NCBI RefSeq assembly: GCF_963921235.1
Contig: NC_086107.1
Location: forward strand, 105,712,001 to 105,776,000
Length of the DNA: 64,000 nucleotides
Direction: 5' to 3'
From: Mobula hypostoma
Lineage: Eukaryota
In this document: positions 5,264-27,600 of the stretch, one piece after another
Position numbering within the stretch: the first letter of the stretch is position 1
How the letters are laid out: each line of letters starts with the position of its first letter
The notes under the pieces: model-generated
Database searches by the model: none
Told to the model about the DNA's origin: nothing
Seen by the model: the letters and a program-made list of their open reading frames with translations, nothing else
Position numbers and translations under genes: made by a program

Positions 5264-5269
5264 TTTATT
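5264..5269 (-). terminator. Candidate polyadenylation signal AATAAA (possible distal mgp 3' end)
   Basis: Minus strand AATAAAgaaatattgaaagtttctctctgtgcccgtctactttttg: hexamer followed by a U/GU-rich tract, preceded by AT-rich non-repeat sequence. A nearer AATAAA (7316-7311) lies inside a repeat. Confidence 0.4.
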
Positions 5270-5729
5270 ATATATTCCTGTAAATGCCATTGAAAGTTTC
5301 AGTTACACTCTGCACCTATAATGATTAGGTTGTAAGCTTCAAACAGAGGTTGATAAGAAGCTCTTACAGGTTCAAGTCGCAAACAGGATGTATTTACAAG
5401 GTTTATGTGTATAATATACAGCATATGTTGCAGACTATAATTTTATTTCTCTCTGCTGATATGGTTTACACTGCGTTGGTTACTAATATTGTTAACTGGA
5501 GTACACTCTACTGAGTTTGGGCAGTCTGGAACAGGTGCTGGGCAGTCCTGCCCAGAGGCTGCAAACTCTACCCACCTCCCTCAAAAAAAAGCACCTTGTT
5601 GCTCTTGAGCTGAAATTGCTTTCCCTTTGCCGCTGGCTCTGAGGAAGTTCTTAGCCTCACTGTAGTGGAGAGAAGTCAGTGGTCTGGTCTGCTTTGTACC
5701 TGGCTGTACATATTCTCTGTCACTTGTGT

Positions 5730-7566: not shown

Positions 7567-7771
7567 CTAGTACCCGTAGTACTGTTTCCTGCTCCGATAG
7601 CCTCTCTGTCGGTGAGGCCGCAGCTGGCCGTGGCTCCCGGGGCGCATCCAGCCACCACCAAAGCGCCTGCTCTGAGCGTACCTGCCGTTGACCTGTCTTG
7701 TCAGGTGATCGCACAGCGGGTACTCCTCGCACTGCTCCCTGTTCACCTCGTATATGGGCTTGACTCGCGCC
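7567..7771 (-). CDS. mgp: Matrix Gla protein, coding part of last exon (Gla domain plus basic C-terminal extension)
   Basis: Minus strand: gttggttctccag|G GCG CGA GTC AAG CCC..., giving ARVKPIYEVNREQCEEYPLCDHLTRQVNGRYAQSRRFGGGWMRPGSHGQLRPHRQRGYRSRKQYYGY*. ExxxExC Gla motif with the CxxxxxC loop. Exons sum to 55+30+70+205=360 nt (119 aa + TAG). Confidence 0.95.
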
Positions 7772-10979: not shown

Positions 10980-11049
10980 CTTTCCCATGGATACCATCGA
11001 CTTGCAGGTCTCATAAAGGAATACGCATCTCCCCTCCCAAGGAACAGCA
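10980..11049 (-). CDS. mgp: Matrix Gla protein, exon 3 (gamma-carboxylase recognition region VLFLGRGDAYSFMRPASRWYPWER)
   Basis: Minus strand: cctttctcttgtag|TG CTG TTC CTT GGG AGG GGA GAT GCG TAT TCC TTT ATG AGA ... TGG GAA AG|gtttgt. 70 nt, phase 1-2. Resembles shark MGP VLFLGRQDANSFMR (recalled). Confidence 0.95.
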
Positions 11050-11419: not shown

Positions 11420-12185
11420 CAGTGTGTCTGTGACACAGTTTCTATTTGTCTCAGAGTCTCTGACCCCCTGTGTCTCAACGTCTGACCCACTGTGTCTCAG
11501 TGTTCCTGACCCTCTGTGTCACAGAGTCCCTGACCCTCTGTGTCTCAAAGTCTGACCCATTGTGTCTCAGTGTCCCTGATCCTCTGTGTCTCGATGTCTG
11601 ACCCATTGTGTCTCAGTATCTCCGACCCTCTGTGTCAGAGTTCCTGACCCTCTGTGTCTCGATGTCTGACCCATTATGTCTCAGTGTCCCTGATACATTA
11701 TGTCACAGTGTCCCTGACCCTCTGTGTCTCAATGTCTGACCTATTATGTCTCAGTGTCCCTGACCCTCTTGTTCACAGTGTCCCTGACCCTCTGTGTCTC
11801 AAAGTCTGACCCATTGTGTCTCAGTATTTCCGACCCTCTCTGTCAGTGTCCCTGACCCTCTGTGTCTCGATGTCTGATCCATTATGTCTCAGTGTCCCTG
11901 ACCCATTATGTCACAGCGTCCCTGACCCTCTGTGTCTCGATGTTTCTGACTCACTGTGTCATGGTGTTCTTGACCCATTGTGTCTCAGTGTCCGTGACCC
12001 TCCATGTCCCAGTGTCCGTGACCCTCTGTGTCCCAGTGTTCCTGACTCACTGTGTCATAGTGTTCTTGACCCATTGTGTCTCAGTGTCCACGACCCTCCG
12101 TGTCTCAGTGTCCGTGACCCTCTGTGTCCCTGTGTCCATGACCCTCTGCATCTCAGTATCCGTGACCCTCTGTGGTGTGACAGTT
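11420..12185. repeat. Degenerate 22/24-bp minisatellite in mgp intron 2
   Basis: Interspersed units TGTGTCTCAGTGTCCCTGACCCTC (24 bp) and TGTGTCTCGATGTCTGACCCAT (22 bp). Confidence 0.92.
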
Positions 12186-12342: not shown

Positions 12343-12372
12343 CATCATCAATCTCATTGGACTCTGAGGAAT
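12343..12372 (-). CDS. mgp: Matrix Gla protein, exon 2 (phosphoserine domain DSSESNEIDD)
   Basis: Minus strand: ttttttctctttgcag|AT TCC TCA GAG TCC AAT GAG ATT GAT GAT G|gtatgt. 30 nt, phase 1-1, two S-x-E motifs. Matches the shark MGP N-terminus DSSESNEIED as I recall it. Confidence 0.95.
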
Positions 12373-13037: not shown

Positions 13038-13969
13038 TTGAGGAGATGTTGCCCGAGAAGGAGCCTCCTGATTACTGATGGAATGAGTGATGCGAATCCC
13101 TCTCTACTGTGAGTCATGGTGGACTTGGGGAAAATGGGCAAATCCCTCTCTACAGTGAGCCAAGGTAGACCCTGAAACCCTACTGAAAAGACTCAACATA
13201 AGCTCAAGGAACAGCTCCTCATCTTCTTTCGGCTGATGTTCCAACATTTCGAATTCAACCATTATAATTAACTGACTTCCTCCGTCTGAACCAGATCTTT
13301 GAACTCATTTCAAATCTTTTACATAATACTTTACTTCTTCCTCCTCTCTCTCCAACCTCCCTTGATAACCTGTCACCACGGCAACCCTAACCTCACCCTA
13401 TCAGAGATATCCATCCTCCAAACCTCTGCAAAACTTAACTCTCTACCCTTTGACTGGAAACATTAGCACTGTGTTTTTTCTACAGCTGCTGCCTGACCCG
13501 ATGAGTATTTTCAACTTTTATTTCAGATTTCCAGCATCTGCAGTTGCTTTCGATGTTGAAATGTCTGATACTGCAAAGGCACCTTCACAGCCTCAGGGTG
13601 CCCTGAGGCATGCGACAGTTAGTGAGGTGCTGTTCTGGAAGTTCAACGACTAGTTTGTCCCTGCAACTCCAGGCTGAGATGGTACAAAAAGGATCAGACT
13701 CCCAGGGATTGAGCACCACGTTATCTCAAGGGAGTGGCGTTATATTTGTCTGTGATGCACTCCACAGGGATATCTCTTGGCATCTGCAGCTGGGTGTCCC
13801 TCTGTCTGCCAAAGGAAAATTACATGGGTATCACCTTCCACAACACAAAATGCGCAGAGAAAACCATTCCTTGAAAACATCCATCGGTGGAACAAATTAG
13901 GATTCACAGACCTACTCTACCGATAACTAAGGGGTTAATGGAGTTCTCGAGCCCTCCACTGCTTTAAGA

Positions 13970-14345
13970 AGTCTACACTTTCAGGAGCAGTTATTCCCCC
14001 TCAACCGTCAATCTCTTAAACCTGAGGGGATATCTTAACTCAACTTAACCCACCTCATCGCTGAAGTGTTCCCACAACCTATTGACTTGCTTTCAAGGAC
14101 AGTTTGCCTCATCTTCTTGATATTTATTGCTTATTTATTTAGTTATTATTATTATTTCCTTTAGTATTTGCACAGCTTCTGGTCTTTTGCACATTGGTTA
14201 GTTGTCCATCCTGTTGGGTGTGGCTGTTCATTGATACTATTGTGTTCCTTGCACTTACTGTGAACGCACAAAAGAAAATGAATCTCAGGGTTACATATAG
14301 TGACTTAAAAGTACTTTGATAATAAATCTACTTTGAACTTTGAAA
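13970..14345 (+). mobile_element. LINE 3' UTR remnant (Rex1-like) in mgp intron 1
   Basis: ttcaggagcagttattcccc start, and ends gataataaatctactttgaactttgaa; homologous to 5730-6042. Confidence 0.6.
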
Positions 14346-14883
14346 ACTTGTCCTTCTGATTAATGGTCACCTCTCTGCTGTTTGTGGCTGTTGGCGAGGA
14401 TGCCCGGGGTGAAGTTGTAGCTGCCTCAGCTCCACAGCCCCCTGGGTGAGTGTGTCCGAGCTCAGCACGCTGAACTGCAGATATCAAAGCCAAACCACCA
14501 GATCCAAGGCATGGACGTTACCCATAGCTTGTACAATCTGTCGGCTGCTGGACGTGGAAATAACTATCTAGGAAACAGCCAGCACAAAATTAAAAAACTG
14601 ACGCAGATACTTCTCGAGTAGCGATAGTCTGCACCCAGTCCTGTGGTTCTTCCGACAGAGAGCAACCAGTAACTGACCCCTGACATTAGATGACACCCAT
14701 GGAGGGACGCAGTTCAGCCCCAGTTACCTTCCCCAACCGTGAGAAAGGCTAGACAGCCTGCTGTAGGACTGCAAACTGTGGCATTCAAATTGACACTATG
14801 TCTAATTGAAATGTTCGACACTGGCTCTTCCAAGTCCACCTGAGTCTGAGAAAATATTGACGTCACCTTGAAATAAGGTGTGG

Positions 14884-16284
14884 CACTCCCTCAGTACTGT
14901 CCCTCCGATAGTGAGACACTCCCTCAGTACTGTCCCTCCGACAGTGAGACACTCCCTCAGTACTGTCCCTCCGATAGTGAGACACTCCCTCAGTACTGTC
15001 CCTCCGACAGTGAGACACTCCCTCAGTACCGTCCCTCTGACCGTGTGACACTCCCTCAGTACCGTCCCTCCGACAGTGAGACACTCCCTCAGTACCGTCC
15101 CTCTGACAGTGTGACACTCCCTCAGTACCGTCCCTCTGACAGTGAGACGCTCCCTCAGTACCGTCCCTCTGACAGTGAGACACTCCCTCGGTACTGTCCC
15201 TCTGACAGTGAGGCACTCCCCCAGTACCGTCCCTCTGACAGTGAGGCACTCCCCCGGTACCGTCCCTCTGACAGTGAGATGCTCCCTCAGTACCGTCCCT
15301 CTGACAGTGAGATGCTCCCTCAGTACCGTCCCTCTGACAGTGAGACACTCCCTTGGTACTGTCCCTCTGACAGTGAGACACTCCCTCAGTACCGTCCCTC
15401 TGACAGTGAGACACTCCCTCAGTACTGTCCCTCCGACAGTGAGACACTCCCTCAGTACCGTCCCTCTGACCGTGTGACACTCCCTCAGTACCGTCCCTCC
15501 GACAGTGAGACACTCCCTCAGTACCGTCCCTCTGACAGTGTGACACTCCCTCAGTACCGTCCCTCTGACAGTGAGACGCTCCCTCAGTACCGTCCCTCTG
15601 ACAGTGAGACACTCCCTCGGTACTGTCCCTCTGACAGTGAGGCACTCCCCCAGTACCGTCCCTCTGACAGTGAGGCACTCCCCCGGTACCGTCCCTCTGA
15701 CAGTGAGATGCTCCCTCAGTACCGTCCCTCTGACAGTGAGATGCTCCCTCAGTACCGTCCCTCTGACAGTGAGACACTCCCTCAGTACAGTCCCTTTGAC
15801 AGTGAGACACTCCTTCGGTACCGTCCCTCCGACAGTGTGACACTCCCTCAGTACTGTCCCTCTGACAGTGAGGCACTCCCTTGGTACTGTCCCTCCGACA
15901 GTGAGACACTCCCTCAGTACCGTCCCTCTGACAGTGAGACGCTCCCTCAGTACCGTCCCTCTGACAGTGAGACACTCCCTCAGTACCGTCCCTCTGACAG
16001 TGAGACACTCCCTCAGTACCGTCCCTCTGACAGTGAGACACTCCCTCGGTACCGTCCCTCTGACAGTGAGATGCTCCCTCAGTACTGTCCCTCTGACAGT
16101 GAGACACTCCCTCAGTACCGTCCCTCTGACAGTGAGACGCTCCCTCAGTACCGTCCCTCTGACAGTGAGACGCTCCCTCAGTACCGTCCCTCTGACAGTG
16201 AGACACTCCCTCAGTACCGTCCCTCTGACAGTGAGACGCTCCCTCAGTACCGTCCCTCTGACAGTGAGATGCTCCCTCAGTACT
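14884..16284. repeat. 33-bp tandem array (~42 monomers) in mgp intron 1
   Basis: Same monomer and orientation as the large array, but mostly the CAGTACCGT variant. Internal 429-bp (13-monomer) duplication. Confidence 0.98.
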
Positions 16285-16458
16285 TCTCATCTAAAATAAA
16301 CACAGTACTGAAAAGCCTCAGTGTTTCTTAAAAATATACATAAAAATCCTGATTATGTTCCAATCCTTTGTATTAAAAGTTGCACCCAGCCAAACAAAAT
16401 CTCCTTATTCTCTCCGTCTGGGATTAGGAAAGCAGCAGGGGTTAAGGCCGGGTCCTAC

Positions 16459-16513
16459 CTGCGTTGCAGACCGCAGCAAGGACAGAGAGTCCGAGGAGAA
16501 TCAGGATCCTCAT
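16459..16513 (-). CDS. mgp: Matrix Gla protein, coding exon 1 (signal peptide MRILILLGLSVLAAVCNA + first base of Asp)
   Basis: Minus strand: ccaag ATG AGG ATC CTG ATT CTC CTC GGA CTC TCT GTC CTT GCT GCG GTC TGC AAC GCA G|gtagga. 55 nt, hydrophobic signal peptide, phase-1 GT donor, joins in frame to exon 2. Confidence 0.93.
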
Positions 16514-16599
16514 CTTGGTTCAGCTCTTGGTCACTCGGCGTCTCTGTACACCAACCAGCTGGCCTTGTGTGTGTCTGAGCAGAGCTTGGCTCCAGAGAC

Positions 16600-16628
16600 C
16601 CTTATAAGAGGAGGCTTATTTACTCAGC
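16600..16628 (-). promoter_or_regulatory. Putative mgp core promoter (TATA-like TTATAA plus adjacent AP-1/forkhead-like TGAGTAAATAA)
   Basis: Minus strand ctTATAAggg at 16607-16602, ~90 nt upstream of the ATG. ctgagtaaataag lies just upstream. Support is position and motif only. Confidence 0.55.
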
Positions 16629-17259
16629 CGAGCGAGGTCTGACTAATGCTCTGGTTTAGGGGTGTGGGCACATTTTTGGCAAATGGTCCCGAAGGACAGA
16701 GGAACTATTATGAAAGCATCGTCTATAGCCAAGCTGGCTCTGTTCAAGGCTTTCTTTTTTTTTCGGGGAAGTATTTTTCCAGGTAACAAGAAGGGCTGAA
16801 TTCATTGACTATTGAAGGTGTGGGTTTATTGAAGGGTGGGGAGTGAGGGGGAGGGTATGGTGGGCAGGAGTTAGTGTTTGGGACTGGGATATGCAGGAGG
16901 GAGATTTTAACTCTTTGAAACGGTTGTGGCATGTACATAGGATCACACTCACAACCCAAGGTGTCAGCTGAGTTCACGGAGTGAGAGGGGGATGAGATGG
17001 AGGGTGCTGTGTGTGGGATGGGGTGGGGGAAGTCTGGGGAACTGAAGCCCAACAGCATCACACAAAAAAATACTGGGCAAGTATCCAGGAACAGATCTCC
17101 GGGCAAAAATTCTACATAGAGAATTGATATTGAATAGATCTAGAATTCTTGTTTCTGCAATGCCTCAGGGTGAAGGAAGATGCTGGAAGTGTCATCACGG
17201 TTGTAGGAAAGGAGGCAGAATGGTGTGCATAGAAAGATATCGCAAGCAACAATGATATA

Positions 17260-17800
17260 CACTTAGTAACCACTTTAATAGGTATATCTGTACACTTGCT
17301 CATTAATGCAAATACTTAATCAACCAATCACATGGCAGCAACTCACTGTGTGAAAGCATGCAGACATGGTCAAGAGGTTCAGTCGTTGCCCAGACCTAAC
17401 ATCGGAATGAGGAAGAAATGTATTCTAAATGGTTTTGACTATGGAATGATTGTTGGTGCCAGATGGGGTGGTCTGAGTATCTCAGAAACTGCGGATCTCC
17501 TGGGATTTTCATTCACAACAGCATTCAGAGTTTGCAGAGAATGGTGCGAGAAACAAAAAAGAATCTGCCTTGTTAGTGAGAGAGGTCAGAGGAGAATGGC
17601 CAGACTGGTTCAAGGTGACAGTAACTCAAATAACCAGACATTACAACAGTGGTGTGCAGAAGAGCATCTCTGAATGCACAACCAGTCATACCTTTAAGTG
17701 GATAGGCTACAGCAGCAGAAGACCTCAATCACCGGTACCCCCAGTAGCCACTTTATTGGGTACAGGAATTACCAAATTCGGTGGGCAGCGGTCACTGACC
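17260..17800 (+). mobile_element. Tc1-like DNA transposon, internally deleted remnant, ~650 bp upstream of the mgp TATA-like box
   Basis: TA|CACTTAGTAACCACTTTAATAGGTA terminal motif, repeated degenerately near 17741 (ccagtagccactttattgggtac). Transposase N-terminal HTH GMIVGARWGGLSISETADLLGFSFTTAFRVCREW, then ERGQRRMARLV. Confidence 0.82.
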
Positions 17801-18626
17801 AGTTAACCTGCTTTTGCATTCAGCCACGCTGTTCGATCGTTCTGTGACGCCGCCGGAAACTGGGCTGAAGATAAAAAAATGAAATCGAAAAATGGGGGAT
17901 GCTGGAAACCGAAAATTAGACAGACAAAATGCTGGAAACACTCAGCTGCTGGGACAGCCTCTCTCTCCATAGGAGCTACCTGACCTGACGGGCATTCACA
18001 GCATTGGAGTGGGGTTGGGGCTGGTTTCCTGCCTCGAATCATTGGAAACCGAGGAGTCTTTTACATCCTCAAGTGGGCCCGAAATAAACAGCGTAATAAA
18101 CAGTCACGATACTGTAGGATTCCTGTGAACCCGTCACTCCCGTCCTTAATAGTGCAGCACCCCACAGTACGGCCCCTGAGATAGTCCCCGAACCTCTTAG
18201 GTTGGATAGCATGGCATTTTGCCTTTTCCTGAAGAGGTTTATTCAGGGTTACAGCATTGTCTCATTAGAATGCTACAGTGTTCCAAGATTCACACTACTT
18301 ACTCAATAGTTTCAAATTGCAAAGCGTCATCGCAATCCAGAACACGCTCGAGCCCCTACAGTGCTTACCAGTCTTGGTAATCCTCCATTGTATTTATCGA
18401 CACTGCGTGTTCCTTCTCCAGGGTCACACAGGCGCGAACATAACCATGACAGAGGGGCAGGAAATTGACCTGGGCAGAATCTCTGACTGCCGGTTGCCTG
18501 GTCCTATGAATAGCCACCTTGGCCAGGTCCAGCAGCAAACTGACCCTGGTGAACCCACTCCTGACCCTGCCAACTGCCAACTGGGTGACAGAACATCAGG
18601 AAGGTGTAGCTGAAGTTCCGCTAAAT

Positions 18627-21600
18627 TCCCTCAGTACCTCTCCTCTGACAGTGAGACACTCCCTCAGTACCGTCCCTCTGACACTGAGATACTCCCTCGG
18701 TACTGTCCCTCTGACAGTGAGACACTCCCTCAGTACTGTCCCTCTGACAGTGAGACACTCCCTCAGTACTGTCCCTCCGACAGTGAGACACTCCCTCAGT
18801 ACTGTCCCTCCGACAGTGCGACACTCCCTCAGTACTGTCCCTCTGACAGTGAGACACTCCCTCAGTACCTCCCCTCTGACGGTGTGATACTCCTTCAGTA
18901 CTGTCCCTCTGACAGTGAGATACTTCCTCAGTACTGTCCCTCTGACGGTGTGATACTCCCTCAGTACTGTCCCTCTGACGGTGTGATACTCCCTCAGTAC
19001 TGTCCCTCTGACGGTGTGATACTCCCTCAGTACTGTCCCTCTGACAATGAGATACTCCCTCAGTACTGTCCCTCCGACAGTGAGATACTCCCTCAGTACT
19101 GTCCCTCTGACAGTGAGATACTCCCTCAGTACTGTCCCTCTGACAGTGAGACACGCCCTCAGTACTGTCCCTCTGACAGTGAGACACTCCCACAGTACTG
19201 TCCCTCCAACAGTGAGACACTCCCTCAGTACTGTCCTTCCGAGAGTGAGATACTCCCTCAGTACTGTCCCTCTGACAGTGAGACACTCCCTCAGTACTGT
19301 CCCTCTGACAGTGAGACACTCCCTCAGTACTGTCCCTCCGACAGTGAGACACTCCCTCAGTACTGTCCCTCTGACAGTGAGACACTCCCTCAGGACTGTC
19401 CCTCTGACAGTGAGACACTCCCTCAGTACTGTCCCTCCGACAGTGAGATACTCCCTCAGTACTGTCCCTCTGACAGTGAGACACTCGCTCAGTACTGTCC
19501 CTCCGACAGTGAGACACTCCCTCAGTACTGTCCCTCCGACAGTGAGACACTCTCTCAGTACTGTCCCTCTGACGGTGTTATACTCCCTCAGTACTGTCCC
19601 TCTGACAGGGTGACACTCCCTCAGTACCGTCCCTATGACAGTGAAACACTCCCTCAGTACTGTCACTCAGACAGTGAGATACTCCCACAGAACTGTCCCT
19701 CTGACAGTGAGACACCCCCTCAGTACTGTCCCTCTGACAGTGAGACACTCCCTCAGTACTGTCCCTCTGACAGTGTGACACTCCCTCAGTCCCGTCCCTC
19801 TGACAGTGAGACGCTCCCTCAGGACTGTCCCTCCGACAGTGAGATACTCCCTCAGCACTGTCCCTCCGACAGTGCGACACTCACTCAGTACTGTCCCTCT
19901 GATGGTAGGGCACTCCCTCAGCACTGTCCCTCCGACAGTGAGGCATTCCCTCAGTACTGTCCCTCCGACAGTGAGACACTCCCTCAGTACTGTCCCTCCG
20001 ACAGTGTGACACTCGCTCAGTACTGTCCCTCCGACAGTGAGAAACCCCCTCAGTACTGTCCCTCTGACAGTGAGACACTCCCTCAGTATTGTCCCTCCGA
20101 CAGTGAGATACTCCCTCAGTTCTGTCCAGCTGACAGTGAGACACTCCCTCAGTACTGTCCCTCTGACAGTGAGACACTCTCTCTGTACTGTCCCTCTGAC
20201 AGTGAGACACTCCCTCAGTACTGTCCCTCCGACAGTGAGATACTTCCTCAGTACTGTCCCTCTGACAGTGAGAAAATCCCTCAGTACTGTCCCTCTGATG
20301 GTAGATCAATCCCTCAGTACTGTCCCTCCGACAGTGAGACACTCCCTCAGTACTGTCCCGCTGACAGTGAGACACCCCCTCAGTACTGTCCCTCTGACAG
20401 TGAGACACTCCCTGAGTACTGTCCCTCCGACAGTGAGACACTCCCTCAGTACTGTCCCTCCGACAGTGAGACACTCCCTTAGAACTGTCCCTCCGATAGT
20501 GAGACACTCCCTCAGTACTGTCCCTCTGACAATGAGACTCTCCCTCAGTACCTCCCCTCTGACGGTGTGATACTCCTTCAGTACTGTCCCTCTGACAGTG
20601 TGACACTCCCTCAGTACTGTCCCTCTGACGGTGTGATACTCCCTCAGTACTGTCCCTCTGACAGTGTGATACTCCCTCAGTACCGTCCCTCCGACAGTGA
20701 GATACTCCCTCAGTACCTCCACTCTGACAGTGAGACACTCCCTCAGTACTGTCCCTCCGACAGTGAGATACTCCCTCAGAACTGTCCCTCTGACAGTGAG
20801 ACACTCCCTCAGTACTGTCCCTCTGACAGTGTGACACTCCCTCAGTACTGTCCCTCTGACAGTGAGACACTCCCTCAGTACTGTCCCTCCGACAGTGAGA
20901 TACTCCCTCAGCACTGTCCCTCCGACAGTGCGACACTCCCTCAGTACTGTCCCTCCGACAGTGTCAGTACTGTCCCTCTGACAGTGAGACACTCCCTCAG
21001 TACTGTCCCTCTGACAGTGAGACACTCCCTCAGTACTGTCCCTCTGATGGTAGGGCACTCCCTCAGTACTGTCCCTCCGACAGTGAGACACTCCCTCAGT
21101 ACCTCCCCTCTGACGGTGTGATACTCCTTCAGTACTGTCCCTCTGACAGTGAGATACTTCCTCAGTACTGTCCCTCTGACGGTGTGATACTCCCTCAGTA
21201 CTGTCCCTCTGACAGTGTGATACTCCCTCAGTACCGTCCCTCCGACAGTGAGATACTGGCTCAGTACCTCCCCTCTGACAGTGAGACACTGCCTCAGTAC
21301 TGTCCCTCTGACAGTGAGATACTCCCTCAGTACTGTCCCTCTGACAGTGAGATACTCCCTCAGTACTGTCCCTCTGACAGTGAGACACGCCCTCAGTACT
21401 GTCCCTCTGACAGTGAGACACTCCCACAGTACTGTCCCTCTGACAGTGAGACACTCCCTCAGTACTGTCCCTCCGACAGTGAGATACTCCCTCAGTACTG
21501 TCCCTCTGACAGTGAGATACTCCCTCAGTACTGTCCCTCTGACAGTGAGACACGCCCTCAGTACTGTCCCTCTGACAGTGAGACACTCCCACAGTACTGT

Positions 21601-24600
21601 CCCTCCAACAGTGAGACACTCCCTCAGTACTGTCCCTCCGACAGTGAGACACTCCCTCAGTACTGTCCCACCGACAGTGAGACACTCCCTCAGTACCTCC
21701 CCTCTGACGGTGTGATACTCCTTCAGTACTGTCCCTCTGACGGTGTGATACTCTCTCAGTACTGTCCCTCTGACAGTGCGATACTCCCTCAGTACCGTCC
21801 CTCCGACAGTGAGATACTCCCTCAGTACCTCCCCTCTGACAGTGAGACACTCCCTCAGTACTGTCCCTCTGACAGTGAGACACTCCCTCAGTACTGTCCC
21901 TCCGACATGAGATACTTCCTCAGTACTGTCCCTCTGACAGTGAGACACTCCCTCAGTACTGTCCCTCTGACAGTGAGACACTCCCTCAGTACGGTCCCTG
22001 CGACAGTGAGACACTCCCTCAGTACTGTCCCTCCGACATTGAGACACTCCCTTAGTACTGTCCCTCCGACAGTGAGACACTCTCTCAGTACTGTCCCTCT
22101 GACGGTGTGATACTCCCTCAGTACTGTCCCTCTGACAGGGTGACACTCCCTCAGTACCGTCCCTCTGACAGTGAGACACTCCCTCAGTACTGTACCTCCG
22201 ACCGTACGATACTCCCTCAGTACCTCCCCTCTGACAGTGAGACACACCCTCAGTACTGTCCCTCTGACAGTGAGACAATCCCTCAGAATTGTCCTTCCGA
22301 GAGTGAGATACTCCCTCAGTACTGTCCCTCTGACAGTGAGACACTCCCTCAGTACTGTCCCTCCGACAGTGAGACACTCCCTCAGTACTGTCCCTCTGAC
22401 AGTGAGACACTCCCTCAGTACTGTCCCTCCGACAGTGAGATACTCCCTCAGTACTGTCCCTCTGACAGTGAAACACTCCCTCAGTACTGTCACTCAGACA
22501 GTGAGATACTCCCACAGAACTGTCCCTCTGACAGTGAGACACCCCCTCAGTACTGTCCCTCTGACAGTGAGACACTCCCTCAGTACTGTCCCTCTGACAG
22601 TGTGACACTCCCTCAGTCCCGTCCCTCTGACAGTGAGACGCTCCCTCAGTACTGTCCCTCTGACAGTGAGACACGCCCTCAGTACTGTCCCTCTGACAGT
22701 GAGACACTCCCACAGTACTGTCCCTCCAACAGTGAGACACTCCCTCAGTACTGTCCTTCCGAGAGTGAGATACTCCCTCAGTACTGTCCCTCTGACAGTG
22801 AGACACTCCCTCAGTACTGTCCCTCTGACAGTGAGACACTCCCTCAGTACTGTCCCTCCGACAGTGAGACACTCCCTCAGTACTGTCCCTCTGACAGTGA
22901 GACACTCCCTCAGGACTGTCCCTCTGACAGTGAGACACTCCCTCAGTACTGTCCCTCCGACAGTGAGATACTCCCTCAGTACTGTCCCTCTGACAGTGAG
23001 ACACTCGCTCAGTACTGTCCCTCCGACAGTGAGACACTCCCTCAGTACTGTCCCTCCGACAGTGAGACACTCTCTCAGTACTGTCCCTCTGACGGTGTTA
23101 TACTCCCTCAGTACTGTCCCTCTGACAGGGTAACACTCCCTCAGTACCGTCCCTATGACAGTGAAACACTCCCTCAGTACTGTCACTCAGACAGTGAGAT
23201 ACTCCCACAGAACTGTCCCTCTGACAGTGAGACACCCCCTCAGTACTGTCCCTCTGACAGTGAGACACTCCCTCAGTACTGTCCCTCTGACAGTGTGACA
23301 CTCCCTCAGTCCCGTCCCTCTGACAGTGAGACGCTCCCTCAGGACTGTCCCTCCGACAGTGAGATACTCCCTCAGCACTGTCCCTCCGACAGTGCGACAC
23401 TCACTCAGTACTGTCCCTCTGATGGTAGGGCACTCCCTCAGCACTGTCCCTCCGACAGTGAGGCATTCCCTCAGTACTGTCCCTCCGACAGTGAGACACT
23501 CCCTCAGTACTGTCCCTCCGACAGTGTGACACTCGCTCAGTACTGTCCCTCCGACAGTGAGAAACCCCCTCAGTACTGTCCCTCTGACAGTGAGACACTC
23601 CCTCAGTATTGTCCCTCCGACAGTGAGATACTCCCTCAGTTCTGTCCAGCTGACAGTGAGACACTCCCTCAGTACTGTCCCTCTGACAGTGAGACACTCT
23701 CTCTGTACTGTCCCTCTGACAGTGAGACACTCCCTCAGTACTGTCCCTCCGACAGTGAGATACTTCCTCAGTACTGTCCCTCTGACAGTGAGAAAATCCC
23801 TCAGTACTGTCCCTCTGATGGTAGATCAATCCCTCAGTACTGTCCCTCCGACAGTGAGACACTCCCTCAGTACTGTCCCGCTGACAGTGAGACACCCCCT
23901 CAGTACTGTCCCTCTGACAGTGAGACACTCCCTGAGTACTGTCCCTCCGACAGTGAGACACTCCCTCAGTACTGTCCCTCCGACAGTGAGACACTCCCTT
24001 AGAACTGTCCCTCCGATAGTGAGACACTCCCTCAGTACTGTCCCTCTGACAATGAGACTCTCCCTCAGTACCTCCCCTCTGACGGTGTGATACTCCTTCA
24101 GTACTGTCCCTCTGACAGTGTGACACTCCCTCAGTACTGTCCCTCTGACGGTGTGATACTCCCTCAGTACTGTCCCTCTGACAGTGTGATACTCCCTCAG
24201 TACCGTCCCTCCGACAGTGAGATACTCCCTCAGTACCTCCACTCTGACAGTGAGACACTCCCTCAGTACTGTCCCTCCGACAGTGAGATACTCCCTCAGA
24301 ACTGTCCCTCTGACAGTGAGACACTCCCTCAGTACTGTCCCTCTGACAGTGTGACACTCCCTCAGTACTGTCCCTCTGACAGTGAGACACTCCCTCAGTA
24401 CTGTCCCTCCGACAGTGAGATACTCCCTCAGCACTGTCCCTCCGACAGTGCGACACTCCCTCAGTACTGTCCCTCCGACAGTGTCAGTACTGTCCCTCTG
24501 ACAGTGAGACACTCCCTCAGTACTGTCCCTCTGACAGTGAGACACTCCCTCAGTACTGTCCCTCTGATGGTAGGGCACTCCCTCAGTACTGTCCCTCCGA

Positions 24601-27600
24601 CAGTGAGACACTCCCTCAGTACCTCCCCTCTGACGGTGTGATACTCCTTCAGTACTGTCCCTCTGACAGTGAGATACTTCCTCAGTACTGTCCCTCTGAC
24701 GGTGTGATACTCCCTCAGTACTGTCCCTCTGACAGTGTGATACTCCCTCAGTACCGTCCCTCCGACAGTGAGATACTGGCTCAGTACCTCCCCTCTGACA
24801 GTGAGACACTGCCTCAGTACTGTCCCTCTGACAGTGAGATACTCCCTCAGTACTGTCCCTCTGACAGTGAGATACTCCCTCAGTACTGTCCCTCTGACAG
24901 TGAGACACGCCCTCAGTACTGTCCCTCTGACAGTGAGACACTCCCACAGTACTGTCCCTCTGACAGTGAGACACTCCCTCAGTACTGTCCCTCCGACAGT
25001 GTGATACTCCCTCAGTACTGTCCCTCTGACAGTGAGATACTCCCTCAGTACTGTCCCTCTGACAGTGAGACACGCCCTCAGTACTGTCCCTCTGACAGTG
25101 AGACACTCCCACAGTACTGTCCCTCCAATAGTGAGACACTCCCTCAGTACTGTCCCTCCGACAGTGAGACACTCCCTCAGTACTGTCCCACCGACAGTGA
25201 GACACTCCCTCAGTACCTCCCCTCTGACGGTGTGATACTCCTTCAGTACTGTCCCTCTGACGGTGTGATACTCTCTCAGTACTGTCCCTCTGACAGTGCG
25301 ATACTCCCTCAGTACCGTCCCTCCGACAGTGAGATACTCCCTCAGTACCTCCCCTCTGACAGTGAGACACTCCCTCAGTACTGTCCCTCTGACAGTGAGA
25401 CACTCCCTCAGTACTGTCCCTCCGACAGTGAGATACTTCCTCAGTACTGTCCCTCTGACAGTGAGACACTCCCTCAGTACTGTCCCTCTGACAGTGAGAC
25501 ACTCCCTCAGTACGGTCCCTGCGACAGTGAGACACTCCCTCAGTACTGTCCCTCCGACATTGAGACACTCCCTTAGTACTGTCCCTCCGACAGTGAACAC
25601 TCTCTCAGTACTGTCCCTCTGACGGTGTGATACTCCCTCAGTACTGTCCCTCTGACAGGGTGACACTCCCTCAGTACCGTCCCTCTGACAGTGAGACACT
25701 CCCTCAGTACTGTACCTCCGACCGTACGATACTCCCTCAGTACCTCCCCTCTGACAGTGAGACACACCCTCAGTACTGTCCCTCTGACAGTGAGACAATC
25801 CCTCAGAATTGTCCTTCCGAGAGTGAGATACTCCCTCAGTACTGTCCCTCTGACAGTGAGACACTCCCTCAGTACTGTCCCTCCGACAGTGAGACACTCC
25901 CTCAGTACTGTCCCTCTGACAGTGAGACACTCCCTCAGGACTGTCCCTCTGACAGTGAGACACTCCCTCAGTACTGTCCCTCCGACAGTGAGATACTCCC
26001 TCAGTACTGTCCCTCTGACAGTGAAACACTCCCTCAGTACTGTCACTCAGACAGTGAGATACTCCCACAGAACTGTCCCTCTGACAGTGAGACACCCCCT
26101 CAGTACTGTCCCTCTGACAGTGAGACACTCCCTCAGTACTGTCCCTCTGACAGTGTGACACTCCCTCAGTCCCGTCCCTCTGACAGTGAGACGCTCCCTC
26201 AGTACTGTCCCTCCGACAGTGAGATACTCCCTCAGCACTGTCCCTCCGACAGTGCGACACTCACTCAGTACTGTCCCTCTGATGGTAGGGCACTCCCTCA
26301 GCACTGTCCCTCCGACAGTGAGGCATTCCCTCAGTACTGTCCCTCCGACAGTGAGACACTCCCTCAGTACTGTCCCTCCGACAGTGTGACACTCGCTCAG
26401 TACTGTCCCTCCGATAGTGAGAAACCCCCTCAGTACTGTCCCTCTGACAGTGAGACACTCCCTCAGTATTGTCCCTCCGACAGTGAGATACTCCCTCAGT
26501 TCTGTCCAGCTGACAGTGAGACACTCCCTCAGTACTGTCCCTCTGACAGTGAGACACTCTCTCTGTACTGTCCCTCTGACAGTGAGACACTCCCTCAGTA
26601 CTGTCCCTCCGACAGTGAGATACTTCCTCAGTACTGTCCCTCTGACAGTGAGAAAATCCCTCAGTACTGTCCCTCTGATGGTAGATCAATCCCTCAGTAC
26701 TGTCCCTCCGACAGTGAGACACTCCCTCAGTACTGTCCCGCTGACAGTGAGACACCCCCTCAGTACTGTCCCTCTGACAGTGAGACACTCCCTGAGTACT
26801 GTCCCTCCGACAGTGAGACACTCCCTCAGTACTGTCCCTCCGACAGTGAGACACTCCCTTAGAACTGTCCCTCCGATAGTGAGACACTCCCTCAGTACTG
26901 TCCCTCTGACAATGAGACTCTCCCTCAGTACCTCCCCTCTGACGGTGTGATACTCCTTCAGTACTGTCCCTCTGACAGTGTGACACTCCCTCAGTACTGT
27001 CCCTCTGACGGTGTGATACTCCCTCAGTACTGTCCCTCTGACAGTGTGATACTCCCTCAGTACCGTCCCTCCGACAGTGAGATACTCCCTCAGTACCTCC
27101 ACTCTGACAGTGAGACACTCCCTCAGTACTGTCCCTCCGACAGTGAGATACTCCCTCAGAACTGTCCCTCTGACAGTGAGACACTCCCTCAGTACTGTCC
27201 CTCTGACAGTGTGACACTCCCTCAGTACTGTCCCTCTGACAGTGAGACACTCCCTCAGTACTGTCCCTCCGACAGTGAGATACTCCCTCAGCACTGTCCC
27301 TCCGACAGTGCGACACTCCCTCAGTACTGTCCCTCCGACAGTGTCAGTACTGTCCCTCTGACAGTGAGACACTCCCTCAGTACTGTCCCTCTGACAGTGA
27401 GACACTCCCTCAGTACTGTCCCTCTGATGGTAGGGCACTCCCTCAGTACTGTCCCTCCGACAGTGAGACACTCCCTCAGTACCTCCCCTCTGACGGTGTG
27501 ATACTCCTTCAGTACTGTCCCTCTGACAGTGAGATACTTCCTCAGTACTGTCCCTCTGACGGTGTGATACTCCCTCAGTACTGTCCCTCTGACAGTGTGA

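Follow-up and report, generated by a model that had tools for sequence, protein, structure and literature searches.

In the ray Mobula hypostoma, mgp1, an intact gene for a matrix Gla protein that inhibits cartilage calcification, has its start on an island of 2.3 kb. The arrays on either side of this island are built of the same abundant 33-bp repeat but appear to have grown separately, and they are probably bystanders that are tolerated, with no effect on the gene shown here. We give this reading a probability of roughly 0.74. The window analysed is the whole stretch of 64,000 nucleotides (NC_086107.1, positions 105,712,001 to 105,776,000 of the forward strand; coordinates below count from its first letter), and mgp1 lies on its minus strand. 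The observations that carry the reading are the structure of the gene, the geometry of the arrays, their separate variant sets, the presence of both island junctions in a second organism (organism B), and a probable RNA contig that leaves the genomic sequence at the exon-1 donor.

Results

Geometry of the exon-1 island and its flanking arrays

Tandem arrays were called with Tandem Repeats Finder. Two of them are made of one 33-bp unit and run in the same direction: the first occupies 14884-16283 in intron 1 of mgp1 (42.4 copies), and the second extends upstream of the gene from 18627 to 64000 (1369 copies), where it runs past the window edge, so that its length is at least 45,374 bp. Between them lies the island (16284-18626, 2,343 bp), which carries the start of intron 1, exon 1, the 5' region and about 2 kb of upstream DNA. 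The intronic array comes within 175 bp of the exon-1 donor, and its far end joins unique intron sequence. A candidate TATA-like hexamer, TATAAG (minus strand, 16606-16601), is located 93 bp upstream of the ATG; the distance from this hexamer to the large array is 2,021 bp. A first-pass annotation of this DNA had described exon 1 on a 2.3-kb island between two 33-bp arrays, and its coordinates, its layout and both distances proved right. The orientation shared by the two arrays would be expected one time in two by chance; inside the large array, no inverted matches were found at the megablast settings used.

The two arrays have separate histories

The arrays were compared unit by unit, using 42 full units from the intronic array and 1,346 from the large array. 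The intronic array contained 18 unit types and the large array 198, with only 4 of the 18 intronic types shared. An exact copy in the large array was found for 14 of the 42 intronic units and for 2 of the 41 adjacent intronic pairs, whereas the corresponding medians for same-sized large-array blocks were 95% and 84% (range for pairs, 51-100%). Moreover, the differentiation statistic was 0.155 between the intronic and the large array, but stayed between -0.007 and 0.022 for each of 32 same-sized blocks taken from the large array, the three nearest the island among them. Individual variants showed the same separation: CG at unit positions 15-16 was present in 30/42 intronic vs. 58/1,346 large-array units, G at position 2 in 11/42 vs. 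7/1,346, G at position 10 in 8 units vs. 1, and TA at positions 1-2 in 0/42 vs. 341/1,346. Three other variants differed weakly or not at all between the arrays (p 0.02-0.76).

The longest exact match between the arrays was 95 bp, compared with 378 bp inside the intronic array, where 13 units (429 bp) are duplicated, and 324-813 bp in 12 of 12 random slices of the large array. Similarly, the highest full-length identity between the arrays was 92.1%, against 94.5-99.9% in all 10 control slices within the large array. Therefore, each array has been homogenised within itself, and there is no trace of recent conversion or crossover between them. The earlier statement that the arrays share monomer and orientation thus holds for the orientation and the consensus unit, but not for the variant sets, which differ.

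Within the large array, nested and partly diverged duplications are seen, in blocks of 2.4-4.5 kb that recur at lags of 83-194 units and are marked by shortened units of 23 and 32 bp. As a long head-to-tail array with higher-order blocks and homogenisation within the array, it has the properties of satellite DNA. Perfect duplications of 1,869 bp (19613 vs. 23133) and 1,339 bp are also present near its start (19613-26416), reflecting either very recent expansion or assembly duplication. Outside the arrays, two windows at 18/26 matches to the unit barely exceeded shuffled sequence (4-6 windows starting at 17/26) and were not counted as stray units.

These comparisons bear on two other accounts of the layout. 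The first-pass annotation proposed that unequal recombination between the direct arrays would delete the promoter and exon 1 cleanly, which would make the arrays a substrate for recurrent deletion. The arrays do share one unit in direct orientation at a distance of 2.3 kb, with full-length alignments up to 92.1% identical. Efficient homologous recombination in mammals requires a minimum of roughly 130-230 bp, and the 95-bp perfect match falls below this length; neither long near-identical homology nor signs of exchange were found between the arrays. Far better recombination partners exist inside each array, no gene-conversion footprint was seen, and both junctions persist in organism B. Furthermore, loss of exon 1 would remove the signal peptide and the start codon and would therefore produce a null allele. 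Recurrent deletion is thus disfavoured, and we consider it very improbable.

Alternatively, a single ancestral array may have been split by a moved or inserted island carrying the promoter and exon 1. This would account for the same unit and orientation on both sides of the island, and a translocation of Mgp1 in batoids has been proposed in Leurs et al. (PMC8006282). However, exons 1-4 stand in normal order and phase in the conserved four-exon layout, indicating that exon 1 has not moved relative to exons 2-4. In addition, the units that border the island come from one variant set on one side and from another on the other side, and the distal end of the intronic array meets unique intron sequence. 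A split array is therefore extremely unlikely.

Both junctions are present in a second organism

Four of 23 sequencing runs were compared with 16244-18666; all comparisons were made with contigs rather than raw reads, and a junction was counted as bridged at 31 letters. The high-share DNA runs of organism A all came from one sample. Run X1 (organism A) yielded contigs covering 16255-17376 and 17698-18666 with 0 differences, and run X5 (organism B, 96-97% identical) yielded contigs covering 16245-17312 and 18090-18666. The organism B contigs pass both junctions, by 39 and 40 bases, and the large-array junction is bridged in both X1 and X5 (40 bases). Because the organism B contigs cross both junctions, the junctions are real and predate the split between organisms A and B. 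For run X9 (organism C, 91-96% identical), no piece among those listed extends into the large array, and the missing cover at 16568-16648 and beyond 18538 was not taken as evidence.

Summed contig depth over 40 array bases was about 10^4 times the single-copy depth in all three DNA-type runs (X1, X5, and X9), a ratio that is not a copy number. The 33-bp unit is thus an abundant family in three organisms. Joints of 16283/16284 to 18642 were seen in the same three runs and were considered as evidence of deletion, but they had only 21-25 letters on one side and depth above single copy; they are therefore satellite contigs, silent on deletion, and were rejected.

Contigs crossing the large-array junction in X1, with 0 differences, and in organism B also limit the possibility that the assembler misplaced or inflated the large array, in which case the displacement of upstream DNA by 45 kb would be an artefact. 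Such an error would be in keeping with the two perfectly duplicated stretches of 1.3-1.9 kb near the array start (including the 1,869-bp pair) and with the lack of any record that spans the whole island or goes far into the array. The presence of Mgp1 on a short scaffold in Amblyraja and the failure to find it in Pristis, as given in the accessible part of one study (PMC8006282), likewise suggest a region that is hard to assemble. On the other hand, 198 unit types and nested, partly diverged duplications (lags of 83-194 units) are what a real, evolving satellite would show. Overall, an assembly artefact is improbable; misplacement or inflation would concern the array length and not the junction.

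The flanked gene is an intact Mgp1

The predicted mgp1 gene comprises four exons with AG acceptors and GT donors (CDS 16513-16459, 12372-12343, 11049-10980, and 7771-7567) and encodes an intact product of 119 aa. Exon 1 (16459-16615, its extent taken from the probable RNA contig with 0 differences) contains the ATG and the signal peptide and ends at a GT donor at 16458. Exon 2 (12343-12372, 30 bp) encodes the SSES phosphorylation motif (DSSESNE in the product), exon 3 (10980-11049, 70 bp) the region of the carboxylase docking site, DAYSF, and the coding part of exon 4 (7567-7771) the Gla core EVNREQC, which conforms to ExxxExC, followed by a basic C-terminus and the stop codon. This arrangement corresponds to that of chondrichthyan Mgp1, which has four exons, a signal peptide in exon 1, an SSES phosphorylation motif, a docking site in exon 3 and an ExxxExC core in exon 4 (Leurs et al., 2021; PMC8006282). 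The ray gene differs in its docking site, AYSF, and in having satellites on both sides of exon 1; no flanking satellite is described in the available part of that paper.

The predicted product is identical at every residue to the 'matrix Gla protein-like' record of Mobula hypostoma (XP_062919450.1, on a 117-Mb sequence). Its relatives include proteins from M. birostris (90% identity, 118 Mb), Hemitrygon akajei (74%, 41 Mb), and Hypanus sabinus (73%, 43 Mb), so that the protein is intact and conserved across four named myliobatiform records. Among 12 matches, the top one was a shark MGP (E 2.7e-33). Identity to catshark Mgp1, which bears AHSF, was 50%, and the ray product agreed by eye, with no tree built, with the skate Mgp1 rows in the supplement of PMC8006282. 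Because Pfam scans gave no Gla-family match at the thresholds used, mgp1 was identified from sequence searches together with the structure of the gene. Neither Mgp2 nor Bgp of any ray was among the 35 matches of a profile search, and Mgp2 is described as being without the serine phosphorylation site (PMC8006282). Because of the SSES motif, the exon layout and the 50% identity to the catshark AHSF protein, we classify the predicted gene as Mgp1 and not as Mgp2 or Bgp, which confirms its first naming as mgp and makes it more specific.

Several further features of the gene were observed. The docking site is AYSF in myliobatiform Mgp1, ANAF in basking and white sharks and AHSF in catshark. Exon 4 includes an internal donor-like site. 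On the minus strand at 5264-5660, an acceptor-like site near 5657 is followed by non-repetitive-looking sequence and an AATAAA at 5269-5264, a possible additional 3' exon of mgp1.

Transcription and possible regulation of mgp1

Run X10, which is probably RNA, contained a 534-nt contig that matches 16615-16459 with 0 differences. The match stops precisely at the exon-1 donor, beyond which the contig has a further 377 letters outside the compared stretch (16244-18666). The coding sequence of exons 2-4 would account for 305 nt of these 377 letters, and the rest would end inside the 3' microsatellite. The contig is thus compatible with a spliced mgp1 mRNA. None of the listed runs is recorded as RNA, which is not evidence either way. 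Silencing of mgp1 by the satellite is not evident, given a probable RNA contig in which exon 1 ends at its donor.

Of the promoter that had been placed on the island, the TATA-like hexamer is present. It is a candidate only, because the first base of the probable RNA contig, 16615, lies 9 nt upstream of it, although no transcription start can be fixed from contigs. Immediately upstream of the TATA-like box (16601-16625, minus strand) there is an AP-1-like TGAGTAA, and the probable RNA contig starts between the two.

Promoter and intronic variable number tandem repeats (VNTRs), such as the human insulin VNTR, can alter expression. As the first-pass annotation suggested, the arrays may likewise be a cis-regulatory VNTR or a chromatin tuner, with their length or heterochromatin setting the output of mgp1 and hence cartilage mineralisation; that annotation also held that distal enhancers might be displaced by at least 45 kb and that satellite chromatin might spread onto the promoter. 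One array comes within 175 bp of the exon-1 donor and the other within 2,021 bp of the TATA-like box, both junctions are retained in organism B, and the 33-bp unit holds one TGACAG motif, the sole match among four motif classes scanned, which we take to be a TALE/Meis motif. Gene-proximal satellite repeats are discussed as expression modulators in other animals in the accessible parts of two papers (PMC7348797, PMC12653875), and a distal promoter is described for Xenopus Mgp (PMC11641715). As far as the available text goes, neither the work on the human MGP promoter nor the Xenopus distal promoter (PMC11641715) makes elements far upstream necessary or excludes them. As with expression-altering VNTRs and with euchromatic satellites near genes, to the extent that the available sources describe them (PMC7348797, 10.1101/2023.04.24.538079), repeat arrays in the ray lie within about 2 kb of the presumed transcription start and in intron 1. 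Those cases rest on length polymorphism or on chromatin and expression data. The upstream array in the ray exceeds a typical promoter VNTR in length by two orders of magnitude.

Several observations argue against a regulatory role. The gene is intact and apparently spliced, and no enhancer is known upstream that might be displaced. The 33-bp family is abundant genome-wide, and proximity to some gene is therefore expected. Moreover, exon 2 is equally near an unrelated array: a tandem array in intron 2 (11447-12174), different from the 33-bp unit and with periods of 24, 46, and 70 bp, ends 168 bp from the exon-2 donor, so that exon 2 also sits on an island of its own, 2.7 kb long, between arrays. 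We consider a VNTR or tuner unlikely.

Origin of the unit and the repeat-rich surroundings

The 33-bp unit and the flank below 14884 may resemble SacSINE1/Deu. Sharks and the little skate carry SacSINE1, which belongs to the Deu-SINEs (short interspersed elements; PMC5499810). When metagenome, viral and prokaryote genome collections, which contain little or no elasmobranch DNA, were searched with a degenerate pattern for the unit, 0 matches were obtained. Likewise, no matching SINE sequence was found in the collections, papers or supplements searched, with one file of PMC4824008 excluded; other supplements may carry the SacSINE1 consensus. Squamate SINE-derived satellites, as described in the part of Vassetzky et al. 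(2023; PMC10702118) available to us, have units of 70-290 nt in few to >1,000 copies, with a preference for subtelomeric positions. They resemble the ray repeat in forming many separate loci of one unit with locus-specific subvariants, as in the two arrays here; the ray unit differs in being 33 nt long against 70-290 nt, and its SINE origin is only presumed.

Two other repeats lie on the island, whose orthologous contigs are ~96-97% identical in organism B and ~91-96% in organism C. A very high-copy interspersed element (17216-17782, plus strand), with depth up to 6x10^5 vs. 9 for single-copy DNA, occupies roughly one quarter of the island and lies ~600 bp upstream of the TATA-like box. It contains a broken helix-turn-helix frame with weak, below-cut-off matches to HTH_23 and HTH_28 (E 0.036 and 0.066) and is likely a remnant of a Tc1-like DNA transposon, the Tc1 label being our presumption. 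A moderately repeated element abuts the large array (18350-18626); over this element the summed depth goes up from 8 to 112 in X1, with a similar increase in X5 and X9, and the element could be a seed or host of the large array. The CpG observed/expected ratio was 0.24 in the large array, 0.49 in the intronic array, 0.40 in the island and 0.35 in the background. Rfam searches of 13500-19000 gave three sub-threshold matches, which were judged to be chance.

Such surroundings agree with the make-up of batoid genomes, which are 61-66% repeats (10.64898/2026.10.27.761883); in the red stingray genome, many regions are dominated by simple tandem repeats, without intron or intergenic bias (10.1101/2025.06.08.657570). 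The main text of a manta and devil-ray genome preprint has 0 occurrences of 'mgp', and no published account of the 33-bp unit or of this locus was found in a literature that lacked most subscription papers.

Discussion

We propose that each array was seeded from a genome-wide repeat family and then expanded by local unequal exchange and homogenised internally, as would be expected because the best recombination partners of each array are its own copies. The gene would be driven by sequences in the island, in the introns or downstream, or by contacts looping over the array, and any deletion allele would be null and removed by selection. We infer that dispersed seeds, growth by unequal exchange within each array and a lack of regulatory effect complete this account. 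Given that the arrays have evolved separately and that the layout recurs in a related species, the locus probably represents an ordinary environment rich in repeats and not a regulatory switch.

Several points weigh against this proposal. At the 31-letter threshold, the intronic junction is bridged only in X5, while contigs of X1 and X9 enter the array by 29 bases. X1 may be the source sample of the assembly. Since contigs enter each array by only ~40 bases, the array lengths given here are those of the assembly. The retention of both junctions could equally reflect a selected function, and the neutrality of the arrays is deduced from an absence of signs. Concerning transcription, the RNA status of X10 is a guess, its 377 further letters were assigned by length, and a single contig gives neither expression level nor tissue. 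Finally, the flanks of the two arrays are not alike (the left flanks share a 34-bp match at p 0.05, and the other comparisons gave p 0.14-0.73); therefore the arrays are not both recognisable copies of one element, and the seeds are unexplained.

The catshark expresses Mgp1 in chondrocytes ahead of mineralisation, in the notochord and around gill vessels (PMC8006282). If array length did control mgp1, the array would be a natural regulator of cartilage calcification in sharks and rays; nothing here shows that control. In a broader version of this idea, the repeat family has boxed exon 1 since before two devil-ray-like lineages split and was kept for tuning or insulating mgp1, with array length as a heritable mineralisation dial and the array behind both the loss of Mgp1 from skate and sawfish assemblies and its apparent translocation. 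We regard this as a long shot.

The locus also touches on the placement of Mgp1 in batoids. In the part of Leurs et al. (2021; PMC8006282) that was available, Mgp1 is reported on a short separate scaffold in Amblyraja and as missing in Pristis, and the choice between translocation and assembly artefact is left open. Unlike the Amblyraja gene, Mgp1 of the four myliobatiform records, from Mobula and stingrays, lies on chromosome-scale sequences of 41-118 Mb. Should Mgp1 prove to have stayed in the Mgp/Bgp cluster in this lineage, an assembly artefact would be favoured over translocation, and the large adjacent satellite would be a plausible cause of the earlier difficulties in assembly.

As it stands, mgp1 is one more gene embedded in repeat-rich ray DNA, and it adds a further case in which locus-specific arrays of an abundant satellite flank the start of a gene. 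The practical value of the finding is a caution and a lead for the question of batoid translocation, in that Mgp1 here adjoins a very large satellite on a chromosome-scale sequence. Moreover, the locus offers a clean, small example of two adjacent arrays of one repeat family evolving independently, just 2.3 kb apart.

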